A stretch of 64,000 bases of DNA from contig CAVRAG010000007.1 of the NCBI GenBank assembly GCA_963718895.1, positions 640,001-704,000 on the forward strand. Reading direction: 5' to 3'. Within the stretch, counting starts at the first letter, position 1; each line of letters begins with the position of its first letter. Positions 5,601 to 11,263 of this stretch are shown here, one piece after another. The position numbers were made by a program, and so were the translations under genes. Source of the DNA: an uncultured Nitrososphaerota archaeon. GTDB taxonomy: Archaea; Thermoproteota; Nitrososphaeria; Nitrososphaerales; Gagatemarchaeaceae. The notes below the pieces were generated by a model. That model was not told the DNA's origin. It did no database searches and saw only the letters and a program-made list of their open reading frames with translations.

Positions 5601-6383
5601 CTAGGTCCACCCTCCCAGTATGCCTCCGTCCACGGGCAGCGCAGCCCCCGTGACGAATGAGGATTCGTCCGAGGCGAGAAAGAGCGCCATGTTCGCGACC
5701 TCCGCGGGCGACCCTATTCGCCCCAGGGGGTGCTTCTTGATGAGATCCGCTTCGGCAGCTTCAGGGTCTGTGGCCTGGGCGAGGATGTCCCTGAGCATGG
5801 GTGTATCGATCGCGCCAGGGCAGATGCAGTTGACGCGGATATTGAACTCTGCGACGTCCATCGCGACGGCCCTCGTGAGCATGAGCACACCCCCCTTCGA
5901 TGCATCGTACGCAGCCTCCTTCTTCATCGCCATCAGGGAGTTTATCGACCCCGTGTTGATAATCACCCCCCTCTTCCTCTTTATCATGTGAGGCAGGACG
6001 TACCTCGTGCAGAGAAAGGTGCCGGTGAGGTTCGTCCCTATGACATCTGCCCATTCGGCCTCGGAGGTCTCGAGCACGGTGCCCACAGGGGAGAGAGCGG
6101 CGTTGTTGAAGAGCACGTCCACCGTCCCGAACTGTTTCACCGTCGACTCGACGAGTTTCTGCACGTCGGAGCTCTTCGATACGTCGGTCCTCACAAAGAT
6201 AGCTTCGCCGTTCTCTCTCTTGATTGCGGCGACGACCTCCCTCCCTTTCGAGGCATTGCGCCCCGCTATCACGACCCTTGAGCCTTCCCTTGCAAAGAGC
6301 ATAGCCGTCGCCCTTCCTATCCCGGAGTTCCCGCCAGTAATAATTGAGACCCGGCCTTTCAGCTTCATCGCTTCAGTTGCCAC
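5601..6383 (-). CDS. SDR family oxidoreductase
   Basis: TGGNSGIG, NNAA, YDASK, RVNCICPG and VDGG motifs. Confidence 0.95.
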   Translation of the reverse strand: MATEAMKLKGRVSIITGGNSGIGRATAMLFAREGSRVVIAGRNASKGREVVAAIKRENGEAIFVRTDVSKSSDVQKLVESTVKQFGTVDVLFNNAALSPVGTVLETSEAEWADVIGTNLTGTFLCTRYVLPHMIKRKRGVIINTGSINSLMAMKKEAAYDASKGGVLMLTRAVAMDVAEFNIRVNCICPGAIDTPMLRDILAQATDPEAAEADLIKKHPLGRIGSPAEVANMALFLASDESSFVTGAALPVDGGILGGWT

Positions 6384-6655
6384 GGCGAGGCTAAAGAAGC
6401 CTTCTGGCTGGATCGGAGGAGGCGGAGGGCCAAGAAAGCCGTCTCCAGGGCAGTCGACCGCCCTCGGGCACTTTCGCGATAGGTCGTTATCCGCCTGCGA
6501 ACATAACCCGCCATGCGCACGAGGCCGTAGAGTTCTAGGATTGACCCTAGGTAGAGAATTGTGAGGACGAGCAGCGGGACGTGGACGAAGGGGTACGCGG
6601 AGACGTCGAAGACATAGACTGCGGAAATCACGCCCTGGGCAAGCAGCAGTTTCAT
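6365..6655 (-). CDS. Small hypothetical membrane protein
   Basis: Two hydrophobic segments; fills the gap between the hxlR-like and SDR genes. Confidence 0.35.
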   Translation of the reverse strand: MKLLLAQGVISAVYVFDVSAYPFVHVPLLVLTILYLGSILELYGLVRMAGYVRRRITTYRESARGRSTALETAFLALRLLRSSQKASLASPWQLKR

Positions 6656-7335: not shown

Positions 7336-7923
7336 CTACTTGTGGAATCTTCCGAATATCCTCTTGAGGAAGCCGCCTTCCTGAGGCGAGGACTCAGCGA
7401 CCGGGACCTCCACAGTGAAGGTCTGCCGACTCGTCGACGCCTCCATAGCTGGAGCGGAAGACTGAACCTTGTCTGCGGCCTCCTGAGGAAAAGGTTGATC
7501 CTGAACTGGAGTGGCGACGAACCCTTCAGGCTCTGCGAGGGCCGGAACTTCCAGGGCGGGGGTCACTTCCACGGGTTCAGGCAGAACCGGGTCGGCCACG
7601 ACGGGCTGGGCTACAATTGTCTCGGCGAGGACTGGCGGGCTGGCGGCGTATGCCGATTCGACCTGCTCCACAGGCTCGACACTTGAGATAGCGTACCCCG
7701 GGCTTGCGGCGGTCTCTGACCTCTTTCGGAAGAAGACGTCGTTGTGAGAGTCCCGCCCCGATGTCGATACCTCGACCGATGCCCCTGTCTCGGCGATGGA
7801 GGACGAAGGAGACGCGAACCCAGAGGACTCCGGCACGGGTCCACCGGTGGTGAACGACGATGCTGCTAGCCTGCTAGACTTCCTCCGGCGCGTGAGGGGG
7901 TCGTCGCCTAAGCCTCGAGGCAA
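7336..7923 (-). CDS. ParA-coupled disordered acidic protein with C-terminal amphipathic helix
   Basis: GAGGAG 8 nt before TTG 7923, overlapping the parA stop; starts MPRGLGDDPL; S/P/E/A/V-rich body; ends EGGFLKRIFGRFHK (195 aa). Confidence 0.7.
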   Translation of the reverse strand: MPRGLGDDPLTRRRKSSRLAASSFTTGGPVPESSGFASPSSSIAETGASVEVSTSGRDSHNDVFFRKRSETAASPGYAISSVEPVEQVESAYAASPPVLAETIVAQPVVADPVLPEPVEVTPALEVPALAEPEGFVATPVQDQPFPQEAADKVQSSAPAMEASTSRQTFTVEVPVAESSPQEGGFLKRIFGRFHK

Positions 7924-8753
7924 CCCAGAATCTCCTCGGTGAGCTTCCCGTAGGCCTTCGCTCCGTTGCAATCGGAATCGTACTCGAAGATAGACTTGTG
8001 ATAGCTCGGCGCCTCGGCAAGCCTGATGTTGACAGGGATGACCGTGGTGAAGACAGGTCCGTCCGTGAAGCCCTTCCTCACCTTTGCCTCGACCTCTCTC
8101 GCCAGGAGCGTCCGTCGGTCGTACAGCGTGAGGACGGCGCCGAGTATCTCCAGGCTGGGGTTTATGTCCTCCTTCACCTTGTGGACGGTGTCCAGGAGCT
8201 GGACCACCCCCTCCATCGCGAAGTACTGCGTCTGGACCGGAATCAAGACCTGATTCGCGGCTGTGAGGGTGTTGACCGTGAGAATGCCGAGAGAAGGGGG
8301 TGTGTCGATCACGACGTAGTCGTACTCGTCTTCCTTGAGCTCCTTCAGCTTCTTCTTCAGCTTGAACTGCATGTTGATGTCGTTCGCCAGGCGAATCTGG
8401 CACGCGCTGAGGTCGCCGCTCGCAGGAGCGACGTCGAGGTTCTCCCTACAGTTCCGGATCAGCACGTCCGAGAGCGAGACCTCCTCGTCGAGGAGCAAAT
8501 CGGCTGTGGTCTTCACGATCGGGGTGTCGGGGCCGACGAGATAGTTCGTGGCATTGGCCTGCGGGTCCATGTCGATGAGCAGGACCCTCTTGCCCGCCGC
8601 GGCAAGCTGGCATGAGAAGTTTACCGTTAGGTCGGTTTTTCCGACACCGCCCTTCTGGTTGGCAACCGCGATTATCCTCGTGAACGCTCCCGTCGTGGCC
8701 GCGCCCGATGGTCCCCTACCGTGGGGCACCTTCTCCAGGGTGGTCATTGTCAA
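7908..8753 (-). CDS. parA: ParA/Soj-family ATPase
   Basis: Deviant Walker A KGGVGKT, DMDPQAN, IDTPPSLG, YDRRT and NIRLAEAPS. Confidence 0.93.
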   Translation of the reverse strand: MTMTTLEKVPHGRGPSGAATTGAFTRIIAVANQKGGVGKTDLTVNFSCQLAAAGKRVLLIDMDPQANATNYLVGPDTPIVKTTADLLLDEEVSLSDVLIRNCRENLDVAPASGDLSACQIRLANDINMQFKLKKKLKELKEDEYDYVVIDTPPSLGILTVNTLTAANQVLIPVQTQYFAMEGVVQLLDTVHKVKEDINPSLEILGAVLTLYDRRTLLAREVEAKVRKGFTDGPVFTTVIPVNIRLAEAPSYHKSIFEYDSDCNGAKAYGKLTEEILGCLEA

Positions 8754-8994: not shown

Positions 8995-10485
8995 CTATCC
9001 CTTGAGCCAGCCCAGCTTCACGAAGACGTACGTCACGAAGGACATGCTGATCACGAGCACAAGGACGACCTCCCACAGGTAACCCGAGTACGGCACGTCG
9101 AGCAGGTTCATCCCGAGCAGTCCCCCCACTGCCGAAGGGATGACCGACATGCTCGTAATTACCGCTAGGATCTTGAGTATCTTGTTGGTCTCGAAGGAGG
9201 TCTGGTTGATGTAGAGGTCGATCGTGGAGTGGATGTTGTTGACCAGGTCTTCCGCTATCTCGTTCAGGTAGGAGACCCCGTCCTGGAGCACGTGGAAGTC
9301 CTCCTCGGCCTCGCTGTCGAACCCTTCGAGGGGGACCTTCTGAGACTCTATGATGCTGAGGAGCTCCTTGAAGTGAACCAGGTTCGATACCAGCCTGGAG
9401 ACCTCCTTGTTGAGGCCGTAGACTCGCTCAAGGAAGTCTCGGGGGAGCTTGGACCGGGGGGTCCCCCCGATCCTGATCACCTCAATCTCGATGTCGGACA
9501 GCACCGACCTGTACTCCCCGAGGGTCTGATCGAGCAGCGCGTAGAGGACAGATACAACGAAGCTTGTCTCTTCCCGGCGACGCACCGACTCCATGACTCC
9601 GGAGAAGACGTCGAGCCCGTGACGGGAGACGGAGATTATCTTCCGTCCCGTGCAGATTATGATCATGCCCGAGCGAGAGATCGTCAGGAAAGCCTCGGGC
9701 CTGTCGGGGTACCTTACCTTGCCTGACTGCAAGAAGATCAGGGACACCTGCTGGACGTAGTCGACGTGCGGGAAAATCTCGTCGACCAAGTCGATTTTGA
9801 AGTGCGGCTCGGGGACCTGGACGAGCGCGCTCAGCCTCCTGACCCCCTCTTGCGTGAGGTTGCGGACGTCGAGCCACTCCTGGCTTTCGTCGACCAGATG
9901 CGACTTCAGGTCGTCCCAGGTCAGGTGGTCCGTCGCCGTGAGCGTCTGTGAATCCACGACTCGTATGACGGTCTCCACTTCCTGCCTCGATTCCAGCGCG
10001 ACGCCCTGGCTCGTCTGCATCCTGCTCCCTAGGGCCCTCCCACCCACTGCCAGCGCCCTTGGGAGCCTGAGCAACCTAAGCAACAACGAGGGTGAGCCGC
10101 GGGTACTGAGACCGAGGGCTGGAAGGTACTGAATGAACGGCAGGACGACGATCACAAGGTCGACGAGGTGCCAAGGCTCCTTGAAGTGGGCCAACCTGTC
10201 CTTTGCGAGATACAACTTCGAGGTGTACTCGGCTACGAAGAGCACAATTATCGCCCAGTCGCAGATGTCGAGGAACTCGATGGCTGACGAGGAAAGATCG
10301 ACCGCGAACGGGATGAGGATGATGGGGAGGATTGCGAAGGAGAGAAAGACCATGAACCTGTCCGAGAGGATCGAGTTGACGGTGTCCCTCAGGTTCTTCC
10401 GGGGGTCGCCTTCTGCGACGAAGAGCGACCGAGCAAGGAGACCGTTGTCCTTTGGACCACCGTCGACGTTTCCCGCATTGGACAT
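8995..10485 (-). CDS. corA: CorA-family Mg2+ channel with N-terminal voltage-sensor-like (S1-S4) domain
   Basis: Start ATG 10485; S2 LFVAEY, S3 WHLVDL, S4 RLLRLPR; then CorA soluble domain (WLDV, FPHVD), NKILKIL and the GMN signature. Confidence 0.85.
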   Translation of the reverse strand: MSNAGNVDGGPKDNGLLARSLFVAEGDPRKNLRDTVNSILSDRFMVFLSFAILPIILIPFAVDLSSSAIEFLDICDWAIIVLFVAEYTSKLYLAKDRLAHFKEPWHLVDLVIVVLPFIQYLPALGLSTRGSPSLLLRLLRLPRALAVGGRALGSRMQTSQGVALESRQEVETVIRVVDSQTLTATDHLTWDDLKSHLVDESQEWLDVRNLTQEGVRRLSALVQVPEPHFKIDLVDEIFPHVDYVQQVSLIFLQSGKVRYPDRPEAFLTISRSGMIIICTGRKIISVSRHGLDVFSGVMESVRRREETSFVVSVLYALLDQTLGEYRSVLSDIEIEVIRIGGTPRSKLPRDFLERVYGLNKEVSRLVSNLVHFKELLSIIESQKVPLEGFDSEAEEDFHVLQDGVSYLNEIAEDLVNNIHSTIDLYINQTSFETNKILKILAVITSMSVIPSAVGGLLGMNLLDVPYSGYLWEVVLVLVISMSFVTYVFVKLGWLKG

Positions 10486-10636
10486 TATCTTGGCTGACGA
10501 CCGGTGTCTAGATTGCGCTGGATAAAAACAGAGACCGTCCGATCCGCGGTCCACGGCCGGGGCGTCGGAATCCTGACCGCAGCCGACTTTCAACACCATT
10601 AATAGACCTCCGCCAAGGGGGCGCTCCCGACCCGAG

Positions 10637-11263
10637 ATGGGGCTGAGGAGCTGGCTAGTTCCGGAGGACAAGGTGTTCTTCGACCTGCTCGAGCAGGAGT
10701 CGAACAACGTCGCGAACGGGGCGAAGGTGCTCGAGGAGATGATAACTCAGTTCGACAGGCTGGAGCAGAGAAGAGCCGAGCTGAAGGAGATTGAACACAG
10801 GGGAGACGAGATAGTCCACGAGATCTACGAGAAGGTCAACTCGTCATTCGTGACGCCAATCGACCAGGACGACATAACGAAGCTCGCATCGCTCTACGAC
10901 GACGTCCTAGACTTCATGGATGCGGCCGCAAACCGCATCGTGCTCTACGAGGTGAAAGAATCGACCGAGGCCATGAAGCAGTTCGCAAGGATAGTGGCAC
11001 GCTCGGTGGCGGAGATCCACACCGCGTTCGTCGCCATGAGGCACCGTGGGGGGGACGAAATCGACCAGAAGTGCATCGAGGTTGACACCCTGGAGAACGA
11101 GGCAGATGTCATTCTGAACGACAGTGTCGCGAAACTGTTCAAGGGCAGCGACGTGATACAGATCATGAAGCTGAAGGAGATCTACGAAGAGCTGGAGATC
11201 GTGACGGACAAGTGCGAGGACGTCAGCCAGGAACTCCGGGACATCGTAAGGCGCTACACCTAG
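10637..11263 (+). CDS. DUF47/PhoU-like phosphate transport regulator
   Basis: EHRGDE, FVTPIDQDDI, LENEAD and TDKCEDV motifs; directly upstream of pit. Confidence 0.92.
   Translation: MGLRSWLVPEDKVFFDLLEQESNNVANGAKVLEEMITQFDRLEQRRAELKEIEHRGDEIVHEIYEKVNSSFVTPIDQDDITKLASLYDDVLDFMDAAANRIVLYEVKESTEAMKQFARIVARSVAEIHTAFVAMRHRGGDEIDQKCIEVDTLENEADVILNDSVAKLFKGSDVIQIMKLKEIYEELEIVTDKCEDVSQELRDIVRRYT

Follow-up and report, generated by a model that had tools for sequence, protein, structure and literature searches.

A Soj-type ParA with a disordered partner bearing a MinD-like terminal helix: a candidate nucleoid-membrane positioning module of Nitrososphaerota

Must an ATPase of the ParA/MinD family carry a membrane helix of its own in order to be linked to the membrane, or could the helix be supplied by a partner? 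The question is raised by a pair of overlapping genes in a stretch of 64,000 nucleotides (here called the window; positions 640,001 to 704,000 of contig CAVRAG010000007.1, assembly GCA_963718895.1) from an uncultured soil archaeon of the Gagatemarchaeaceae, phylum Nitrososphaerota. The first gene, parA, encodes a Soj-type ATPase, and the second, ORF2, encodes an unannotated protein that is predicted to be largely disordered and whose last residues resemble the membrane-targeting sequence of MinD (Table 1). In the available part of PMC11407121, ParA/MinD systems are sorted by the site of their ATPase, the ParA-like ones acting on the nucleoid via a basic patch and the MinD-like ones on the membrane via their own C-terminal helix. 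The best reading of the gene pair, to which an even chance may be given, is that of a ParA/partner positioning module in which the partner is the membrane-anchored component.

Two overlapping genes

By its sequence the product of parA belongs to the Soj/ParA family and is unremarkable within it. The Pfam families AAA_31 (2.3e-57, 194.3 bits for a cut-off of 27) and CbiA (1.6e-25, 89.9 bits for a cut-off of 25.4) were both recognized, and the best solved relatives in the PDB are ParA 8ray (2.5e-57), Thermus thermophilus Soj 1wcv (3.3e-54) and Helicobacter pylori Soj 6iub (7.3e-45), with McdA (4.6e-19), archaeal SegA (7dut, 2e-15) and archaeal MinD (1g3q, 1.6e-15) at a much greater distance. The scores against the MinD models stayed far under their cut-offs (minD_arch, 77.6 versus 201.75 bits; minD_bact, 67.7 versus 212.9 bits). 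Residues K34 to T40 of the deviant Walker A motif, as well as R214 and R244, are invariant in an alignment of 16 ParA orthologues. In the alignment to 1wcv the two arginines, located in YDRRT and NIRLAEAP as the original prediction had it, fall on the positions that we take to be the DNA-binding arginines of Soj. The alignment with Soj/ParA structures covers the protein to residue 276-277 of 281; hence ParA has neither a tail nor a helix of its own past the fold, and the earlier observation that it stops at the end of the fold without a membrane anchor holds, the alignment ending 4-5 residues before the C-terminus.

Comparison of loci showed that ORF2 is a second gene. In 20 of 20 orthologous loci it starts in the same alternative frame with a valid start codon (TTG in 16, ATG in three, GTG in one), and the overlap with parA measures 16 nucleotides in all of them except L020, where it is 31. 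A GGAG core precedes the start at equal spacing in the 19 loci of the genus, and the start is identical across gene callers of several sources. The two-gene architecture that the original prediction had read from this one locus, with a start at GAGGAG..TTG 7923 and an N-terminus MPRGLGDDPL, recurs in the 20 loci as to frame, start site and the two termini. An intact ORF2 of 128-209 amino acids is present in 16 of the 19 genus loci. The frame shifts in mid-gene in L015, L016 and L019, so that the terminal helix is read in the other frame; these loci derive from assemblies in which ParA is fragmented, or that of a relative is (G012, G022), and the breaks were taken to be indel errors. In three close species pairs the dN/dS ratio was 0.39-0.44 for ORF2 and 0-0.09 for ParA, and all indels were in frame, a pattern that marks ORF2 as a real, fast-evolving gene.

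The original prediction had cautioned that one extra G would fuse both reading frames into a single long-tailed protein. Both would then belong to one gene for a MinD-like ParA with a long tail, either broken up by a frameshift in the assembly or produced by programmed ribosomal frameshifting. A single G added at CTGGGTTG would indeed join the two frames; 5' of the ORF2 start, inside parA (window 7924-8403, minus strand), about 160 further codons of its frame are free of stops, so that ORF lists give a 355-amino-acid ORF, and indel errors are present in some long-read relatives. However, the layout is alike in all 20 loci, the start codon is always valid, and the bases that precede it differ across species (GGGTTG, GGGATG, CGCTTG, ATCGTG, AATTG and others), hence no slippery site or homopolymer is shared. 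Short contigs from four DNA runs were compared with the locus, and those from two public runs, which may include the source sample, span the junction at 7908-7923 and show 0 differences from it. Moreover, a profile built from 21 ORF2 sequences was searched against 1.84 billion representative proteins. With E<=0.001 as the limit it gave 167 hits, and at E<=1e-10 the number of clusters was 126; the best 150 of the 167 hits include no protein of 257-1021 amino acids, the range of a ParA-ORF2 fusion. The database proteins P0124 and P0131 are mis-extended or frameshifted through the open ORF2 frame within parA, and P0131, the sole apparent fusion, proved to be a frameshifted reading from ParA into that frame. 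The caution was accordingly dropped, a single split gene being scarcely credible.

Conserved ends and predicted disordered middle of the partner

The alignment of the 21 ORF2 sequences comprises three conserved islands, between which A/P/V/E/S-rich linkers of variable length extend. The protein begins with L/M-PRGLGDDPLTRRRK and ends with GGFLKRIFGRFHK. R3, L5, G6, P9 and L10 are invariant in the N-terminal island (residues 1-12), and N61, V63, F64 and F65 in the middle one, whose consensus is SYNDVFFxRR. The tail follows the consensus GGF[F/L]KR[L/I]FG[K/R]F, in which G184 is invariant and R188, F190 and G191 are conserved in at least 90% of the sequences. The middle of the protein is acidic and of low complexity, as first described, with a net charge of -14 over residues 73-180. 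An AlphaFold2 model computed with the family alignment predicts about 90% of ORF2 to be disordered; it contains only two helices, at residues 9-21 and 185-190, leaves the linker without secondary structure and has its best pLDDT blocks at both ends of the protein. A reading of SYNDVFF as a PIP-box was rejected by eye, the invariant N61 occupying a position that needs a hydrophobic residue.

The likeness of the tail to a known membrane-targeting sequence is close. The C-terminus of Escherichia coli K-12 MinD, taken from NC_000913.3, reads ...EEEKKGFLKRLFGG, and the end of ORF2 reads PQEGGFLKRIFGRFHK; in the core GFLKR[L/I]FG seven of the eight residues of ORF2 are identical to those of MinD (GFLKRLFG), in agreement with the near identity that had been noticed at the outset. 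Nowhere in ORF2 is the helical hydrophobic moment higher than in its last 11 residues (0.78), where F/L/I/F/F and K/R/R/H/K occupy opposite faces.

The other end recalls the peptides by which ParB proteins contact their ATPases. In the accessible part of PMC12462528, ParB binds ParA via an N-terminal motif with aliphatic residues flanking a central R or K, and that of PMC11229316 gives the H. pylori ParB peptide as MAKNKVLGRG, with Leu7 and Arg9 conserved. R-G-L in MPRGLGDDPL recalls LGRG(L) and LGKGLG of ParB proteins, and a downstream leucine is likewise shared. As a degenerate DNA pattern the N-terminal tag occurs once in the 3.1-Mb genome, in ORF2 itself, with no second copy at one mismatch or fewer.

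The family carries no annotation. At E<=0.1 ORF2 matched none of the Pfam and NCBIfam families, and neither PADLOC nor the ESM Atlas gave a hit; the ORF2 profile retrieved from all PDB chains one chance hit only (E 1.3) and no SegB chain, and none of 16 ORF2 homologues bears a functional name. Among the hits listed in the large profile search, the family-type proteins are stand-alone and 63-256 amino acids long. Strict regular expressions for the three motifs fit 71 of 161 proteins; most of those listed among the remaining 90 miss one pattern by one or two residues or are fragments, and about nine, of more than 1000 amino acids, are false hits that match through the low-complexity part only. 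A separate observation concerns P0144, a eukaryote-like ankyrin-repeat protein of 3883 amino acids, which contains many copies of a tail-like motif, KRKSGIFSGIFGKKDK, and matches the profile via these and its low-complexity part only.

Table 1. Features of the parA-ORF2 locus (window positions) and ORFs of the sister family (locus positions)
Feature	Position	Strand	Remarks
parA, Soj-type ParA ATPase	7908..8753	-	281 aa; ORF list and translation; alternative start ATG 8747
Deviant Walker A, K34-G-G-V-G-K-T40	8634..8654	-	Translation; motif reads NQKGGVGKT
R214 codon (YDRRT), counterpart of the arginine in Soj YDGRT	8112..8114	-	Alignment to 1wcv
R244 codon (NIRLAEAP), counterpart of Soj NVRLAEAP	8022..8024	-	Alignment to 1wcv
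ORF2 partner protein, unannotated family	7336..7923	-	195 aa; stop codon 7336-7338; translation
GAGGAG Shine-Dalgarno-like box	7932..7937	-	Inside parA, 8 nt 5' of the ORF2 start
parA/ORF2 overlap, 16 nt	7908..7923	-	parA stop TAG 7910-7908; ORF2 start TTG 7923-7921
N-terminal island, residues 1-15 (M/L-PRGLGDDPLTRRRK), proposed ParA-binding peptide	7879..7923	-	Conservation
Middle island, residues 59-69, SHNDVFFRKRS	7717..7749	-	Family consensus SYNDVFFxRR
Acidic A/P/V/E/S-rich low-complexity linker, residues 70-182	7378..7716	-	Variable length, in-frame indels among relatives
Amphipathic helix at the C-terminus (residues 183-195, GGFLKRIFGRFHK), candidate for membrane targeting	7339..7377	-	Moment, AlphaFold2, MinD likeness
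Partner ORFs of the sister family f4	L064:2253-2492, L065:1637-1870, L066:2256-2480, L062:2256-2525		75-90 aa

Linkage to ParA, genomic context and the sister family

Members of the ORF2 family were encountered only in metagenome-assembled genomes (MAGs) of Nitrososphaerota (Gagatemarchaeaceae-like), and always directly 3' of this Soj-type ParA. Two ORF2 peptide patterns, used alone against one genome per species (185,579 species), retrieved 22 loci, all in Nitrososphaerota, Thaumarchaeota or 'archaeon' MAGs, and in each of the 22 a ParA orthologue lies directly 5' of ORF2. Of the 22 other genus genomes, 19 have a ParA orthologue, as does G027, which belongs to another family; none was found in G005 (90% complete), G016 (57%) and G019 (59%). 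The 22 motif-found loci largely repeat the genomes of this orthologue survey, and the counts are not independent. Short ORFs with conserved termini and a variable middle, which the original prediction had advised looking for downstream of homologous parA genes, were found in 20 of 20 orthologous and 22 of 22 motif-found loci.

The genes that flank the pair vary among the 22 loci and include those for CorA, PhoU/Pit, HxlR and SDR proteins and a small ORF with two transmembrane segments. On the 5' side of parA the window encodes a 570-amino-acid protein (8995-10707, minus strand) that joins, in an unusual fusion, an Ion_trans-like N-terminal part (1.1e-08) to a CorA-like transporter domain (2.4e-31). 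On the other side a 96-amino-acid ORF with hydrophobic stretches (MKLLLAQGVISAVYVFDVSAYPFVHVP...; window 6365-6655, minus strand) matches no Pfam family; its homologues lie directly 3' of ORF2 in several relatives, not in all (L004, L006, L010, L011, L025, L026, L028, L031, L032 and L042).

Soj-type ParA proteins are patchy in the phylum, having been found at E<=1e-40 in 8 of 401 genomes sampled across it. Six of these eight genomes belong to family f45 (L056-L061), in which ParA, at 37-39% identity, has a longer C-terminal extension (RLRGEVIRGES...GLEGGE) and is followed by an ORF of about 150 amino acids with a stretch resembling a helix-turn-helix (HTH), LGVSRGTYAKILGQALRNISQS, and without the ORF2 motif; this ORF may be a different archaeal partner type. 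In G087 (L055) a ParA with 42% identity precedes a canonical ParB start, MLKKNSLGKGLGAMF (MLKKNSLGKGLGAMFPDLLEK), at the end of the contig, which is either a bacterial-type parAB within the phylum or possibly a contaminant contig. Such patchiness would suit a mobile element or a defence system, be it the partition cassette of a plasmid or provirus or a form of the ParA-based immunity whose systems have recently been catalogued (bioRxiv 10.64898/2026.10.19.760177). However, the available part of that catalogue contains no such partner, and PADLOC returned weak P-loop hits for ParA and nothing for ORF2. Around the pair no flanking repeats and no centromere-like or parS-like arrays were found, only short matches at chance level. 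Among closer relatives, moreover, the chromosomal synteny with the CorA, PhoU/Pit, HxlR and SDR genes is stable, and the presence of ParA in 19 of the 22 other genus genomes is likewise at odds with a mobile cassette. An origin of this kind appears very improbable.

A different question is whether ParA has its partner elsewhere. The original prediction had stated that no ParB, SegB or MinE is present; none was found in ORF2, and to that extent the statement stood, but a gene for a ParB_N protein exists outside the window. The protein (303 amino acids, Pfam 2.5e-21; G000:C7:715962-716870, L044:916-1827, minus strand) has the motifs GSRRFEAA, which is GxxRxxA-like, and ENIQRR, and its gene shares the contig with parA, at a distance of 68 kb and about 12 kb past the window end, in a gene order that is the same in G007 and G010. 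ParA and this distant ParB_N might then form an ordinary ParAB system, with ORF2 merely co-transcribed and unrelated, for example as a small membrane-active or envelope protein. The position of an orc1/cdc6 gene would fit such a system. Of four genomes examined, three have this gene at a distance of 19-24 kb from parA: G007 (19 kb), G010 (20 kb) and the present one, where it is found at G000:C7:623837-624097, 24 kb away and about 16 kb ahead of the window; in G018 the two are on different contigs. The ParA-ORF2 pair may be near a replication origin.

ParB_N, however, is not co-inherited with ParA-ORF2. Its orthologues occur in nine of 41 genomes and those of ParA in 21 of 41; eight of the nine have both, G024 lacks ParA, and no ParB_N orthologue was found in the ParA-ORF2 genomes G017 (95% complete), G018 (87%), G008 (88%) and G020 (87%). 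By eye, the N-terminus of ParB_N contains no LG-R/K-GL-like peptide. None of the 22 loci found by motif has ORF2 without ParA, and since the two genes overlap, their translation is expected to be coupled, which also speaks for ORF2 as the partner. It is rather improbable, then, that ORF2 is a bystander of a ParA-ParB_N pair. A search of the genome (80.5% complete) for an archaeal MinD gave no score above the cut-off.

The constant and the variable parts of the partner were delimited by a sister family, f4, which includes G027 and has a ParA orthologue in six of nine genomes. Each of the six full-length f4 ParA loci has an overlapping downstream ORF that starts M[PS]x[RK]L[RQH][DN]NP; L063 ends at the contig edge, and L068, a seventh locus, has no more than a second, truncated copy of ParA. 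Where the sequence continues, in five loci, a basic stretch follows and then RYLR[RP]FF[EK][RK], in which Y-x3-FF is spaced as in SYNDVFF. An hhalign comparison of the ORF2 and f4 alignments matched columns 1-19 with a probability of 77% (E 2e-5). Beyond these elements the two families differ: in place of the linker and the helix, the f4 partners, of 75-90 amino acids, carry a four-cysteine module (CPxC...WCxCG) and an acidic tail. The module occurs in three of four distinct full-length sequences, the cysteines being lost in G027; Pfam recognizes no family in the f4 partners, and the cysteine pattern suggests a zinc-ribbon-like fold. Since f4 keeps the N-terminal peptide and YxxxFF and exchanges the C-terminal end, the former are the constant part of the partner and the latter is the exchangeable one. 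Therefore, a membrane anchor would be a lineage-specific cargo end rather than the core of the system. In the available parts of PMC10241942 and PMC11407121, a charged and disordered N-terminus of ParA/MinD partners contacts the ATPase while the remainder binds cargo, and the modularity seen here is the pattern to be expected of such partners, in which the end that binds the ATPase stays constant and the cargo end varies.

A membrane-anchored partner and its relation to known systems

A number of points weigh against a partner that docks on ParA with one end and on the membrane with the other. The N-terminal peptide is without the leading L-G of the ParB peptides and has the acidic residues D7 and D8 after RGLG; it merely resembles the ParB motif, for which reason homology is not claimed, and a search of the PDB with the first 30 residues of ORF2 returned no chain matching the peptide. 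The AlphaFold2 model is of low confidence, with a mean pLDDT of 55.8. The hydrophobic moment of the tail is unexceptional for its composition, 119 of 2000 shuffles having reached it; in view of this weak control, the argument for the helix rests on its conservation and its extreme terminal position and not on the moment. The f4 partners do without a helix, so that anchoring at the membrane does not extend to the whole of the wider family, and the ParB_N protein could be a partner of ParA. Finally, thaumarchaeal tetraether membranes are unlike bacterial bilayers, and the analogy with MinD may not transfer to them.

Some of these points would be accommodated if ORF2 were a partner of ParA whose helix serves an end other than membrane anchoring, such as self-association, the formation of a condensate or the binding of a protein cargo or of DNA, in a McdAB- or PomXYZ-like positioning of a cytoplasmic assembly. 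The small, mostly disordered ORF2 located 3' of a nucleoid-type ParA would suit that role, as would the four-cysteine end of f4, which implies an exchangeable cargo end; the invariant SYNDVFF could be the cargo contact, and the shuffle test of the moment was not significant. Yet the tail is terminal and short, has cationic and F-L-I faces, follows GG and shares seven of eight residues with a proven membrane-targeting helix, and no cargo gene is consistently linked, the flanks being variable. A helix without a membrane function is, on balance, unlikely.

With a membrane-anchored partner as the preferred reading, the pair would be a conserved, translationally coupled module of non-ammonia-oxidising Nitrososphaerota (Gagatemarchaeaceae-like). 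By homology, ParA would form ATP-sandwich dimers and bind the nucleoid non-specifically. N-terminal peptides of ParB, MinE, McdB and PomX dock on their ATPases and modulate them, and the C-terminal helix of MinD anchors that protein on the membrane. ORF2 would be a dedicated partner that combines both properties, an adaptor that is intrinsically disordered apart from three short islands with a function. Its N-terminal peptide (MPRGLGDDPL and the basic cluster), possibly together with SYNDVFFxRR, would dock on the ParA dimer and modulate its ATPase, the SYNDVFF island being either part of a bipartite contact with ParA or the site for a third component. The long acidic linker would act as a flexible spacer toward ParA, and the cationic amphipathic helix at the C-terminus would hold ORF2 on the cytoplasmic face of the membrane in a MinD-like manner. 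Hydrolysis of ATP would free the tether, and the result would be transient, ATP-dependent links between nucleoid-bound ParA and the membrane. Such tethers could spread, position or segregate the chromosome with respect to the envelope, or place a membrane-associated cargo or structure over the nucleoid. The layout of the genes, their conservation, the placing of ParA in its family, the predicted disorder and the amphipathic nature of the tail were observed; the binding of the peptide to ParA, that of the helix to the membrane and the cellular role are what we infer. In its full form the proposal is a hybrid of the ParA and MinD schemes: a nucleoid-bound Soj-type ATPase whose activating partner is anchored by a MinD-like helix provided in trans, with the membrane as the 'cargo', tethers driven by ATP that position or segregate the chromosome in the absence of a linked centromere-binding ParB, and a partner family of modular 'luggage-tag' adaptors, constant in the N-terminal peptide and YxxxFF, with a membrane helix or, in the sister family, a zinc-ribbon-like module as the exchangeable C-terminal end. 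It is a tentative proposal, possible rather than probable.

The module shares features with each of the known systems and coincides with none of them. As in ParABS (Soj/Spo0J), the ATPase is close to T. thermophilus Soj (3e-54) and keeps the aligned arginines, and the partner gene follows immediately 3' and starts with a short conserved peptide having an R-G-L core and basic residues. Unlike ParB, however, ORF2 shows no ParB/Srx CTPase domain, HTH or dimerisation domain in Pfam and NCBIfam, is predicted to be disordered over about 90% of its length and ends in an amphipathic helix, and no parS-like repeats were seen near the pair. With MinD/MinE it has in common the GFLKR[L/I]FG core (7/8 residues) and the combination of a ParA/MinD-family ATPase with a small downstream partner, but it is the partner that carries the helix, the ATPase ending at its fold and scoring far under the cut-offs of the MinD models; MinC and MinE are absent, and Pfam detects no MinE domain in ORF2. 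The McdAB and PomXYZ systems, as described in the accessible parts of their sources, also consist of a nucleoid-binding ParA-like ATPase and a small disordered partner whose N-terminal region serves the ATPase and the rest the cargo. They differ in that no carboxysome or division genes are linked here, the McdA structure is distant (4.6e-19), ORF2 has no detectable similarity to solved proteins and the proposed cargo is the membrane. SegAB is likewise an archaeal two-gene module with a ParA-like ATPase and a partner whose N-terminal region binds it (PMC12139799, available part), but SegA is distant (7dut, 2e-15), SegB is, in the same part of that source, a folded DNA-binding dimer, and the ORF2 profile found no SegB chain. 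By these comparisons ORF2 is not a ParB, MinE or SegB and appears most like the disordered adaptors McdB and PomX, with a MinD-type helix in addition.

No description of such a partner was found in the literature, in a search that did not cover the texts and supplements of the Gagatemarchaeaceae genome papers. What the arrangement suggests is a link between chromosome and cell membrane of a kind not described before. In practical terms, the short, defined ends of this unannotated partner family might find use as portable tags in synthetic systems for positioning. For the biology of the organism, it is of interest that the mechanism of chromosome segregation in Thaumarchaeota is not known, according to the available part of a review of the archaeal cell cycle; since the pair is about 20 kb from orc1/cdc6 in three genomes, ParA-ORF2 is a candidate for that function. 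The helix that MinD-like ATPases carry themselves is apparently found here on the partner of a nucleoid-type ATPase, and if this is true, the module would couple both matrices, the nucleoid and the membrane, as a minimal tether that could be reconstituted.

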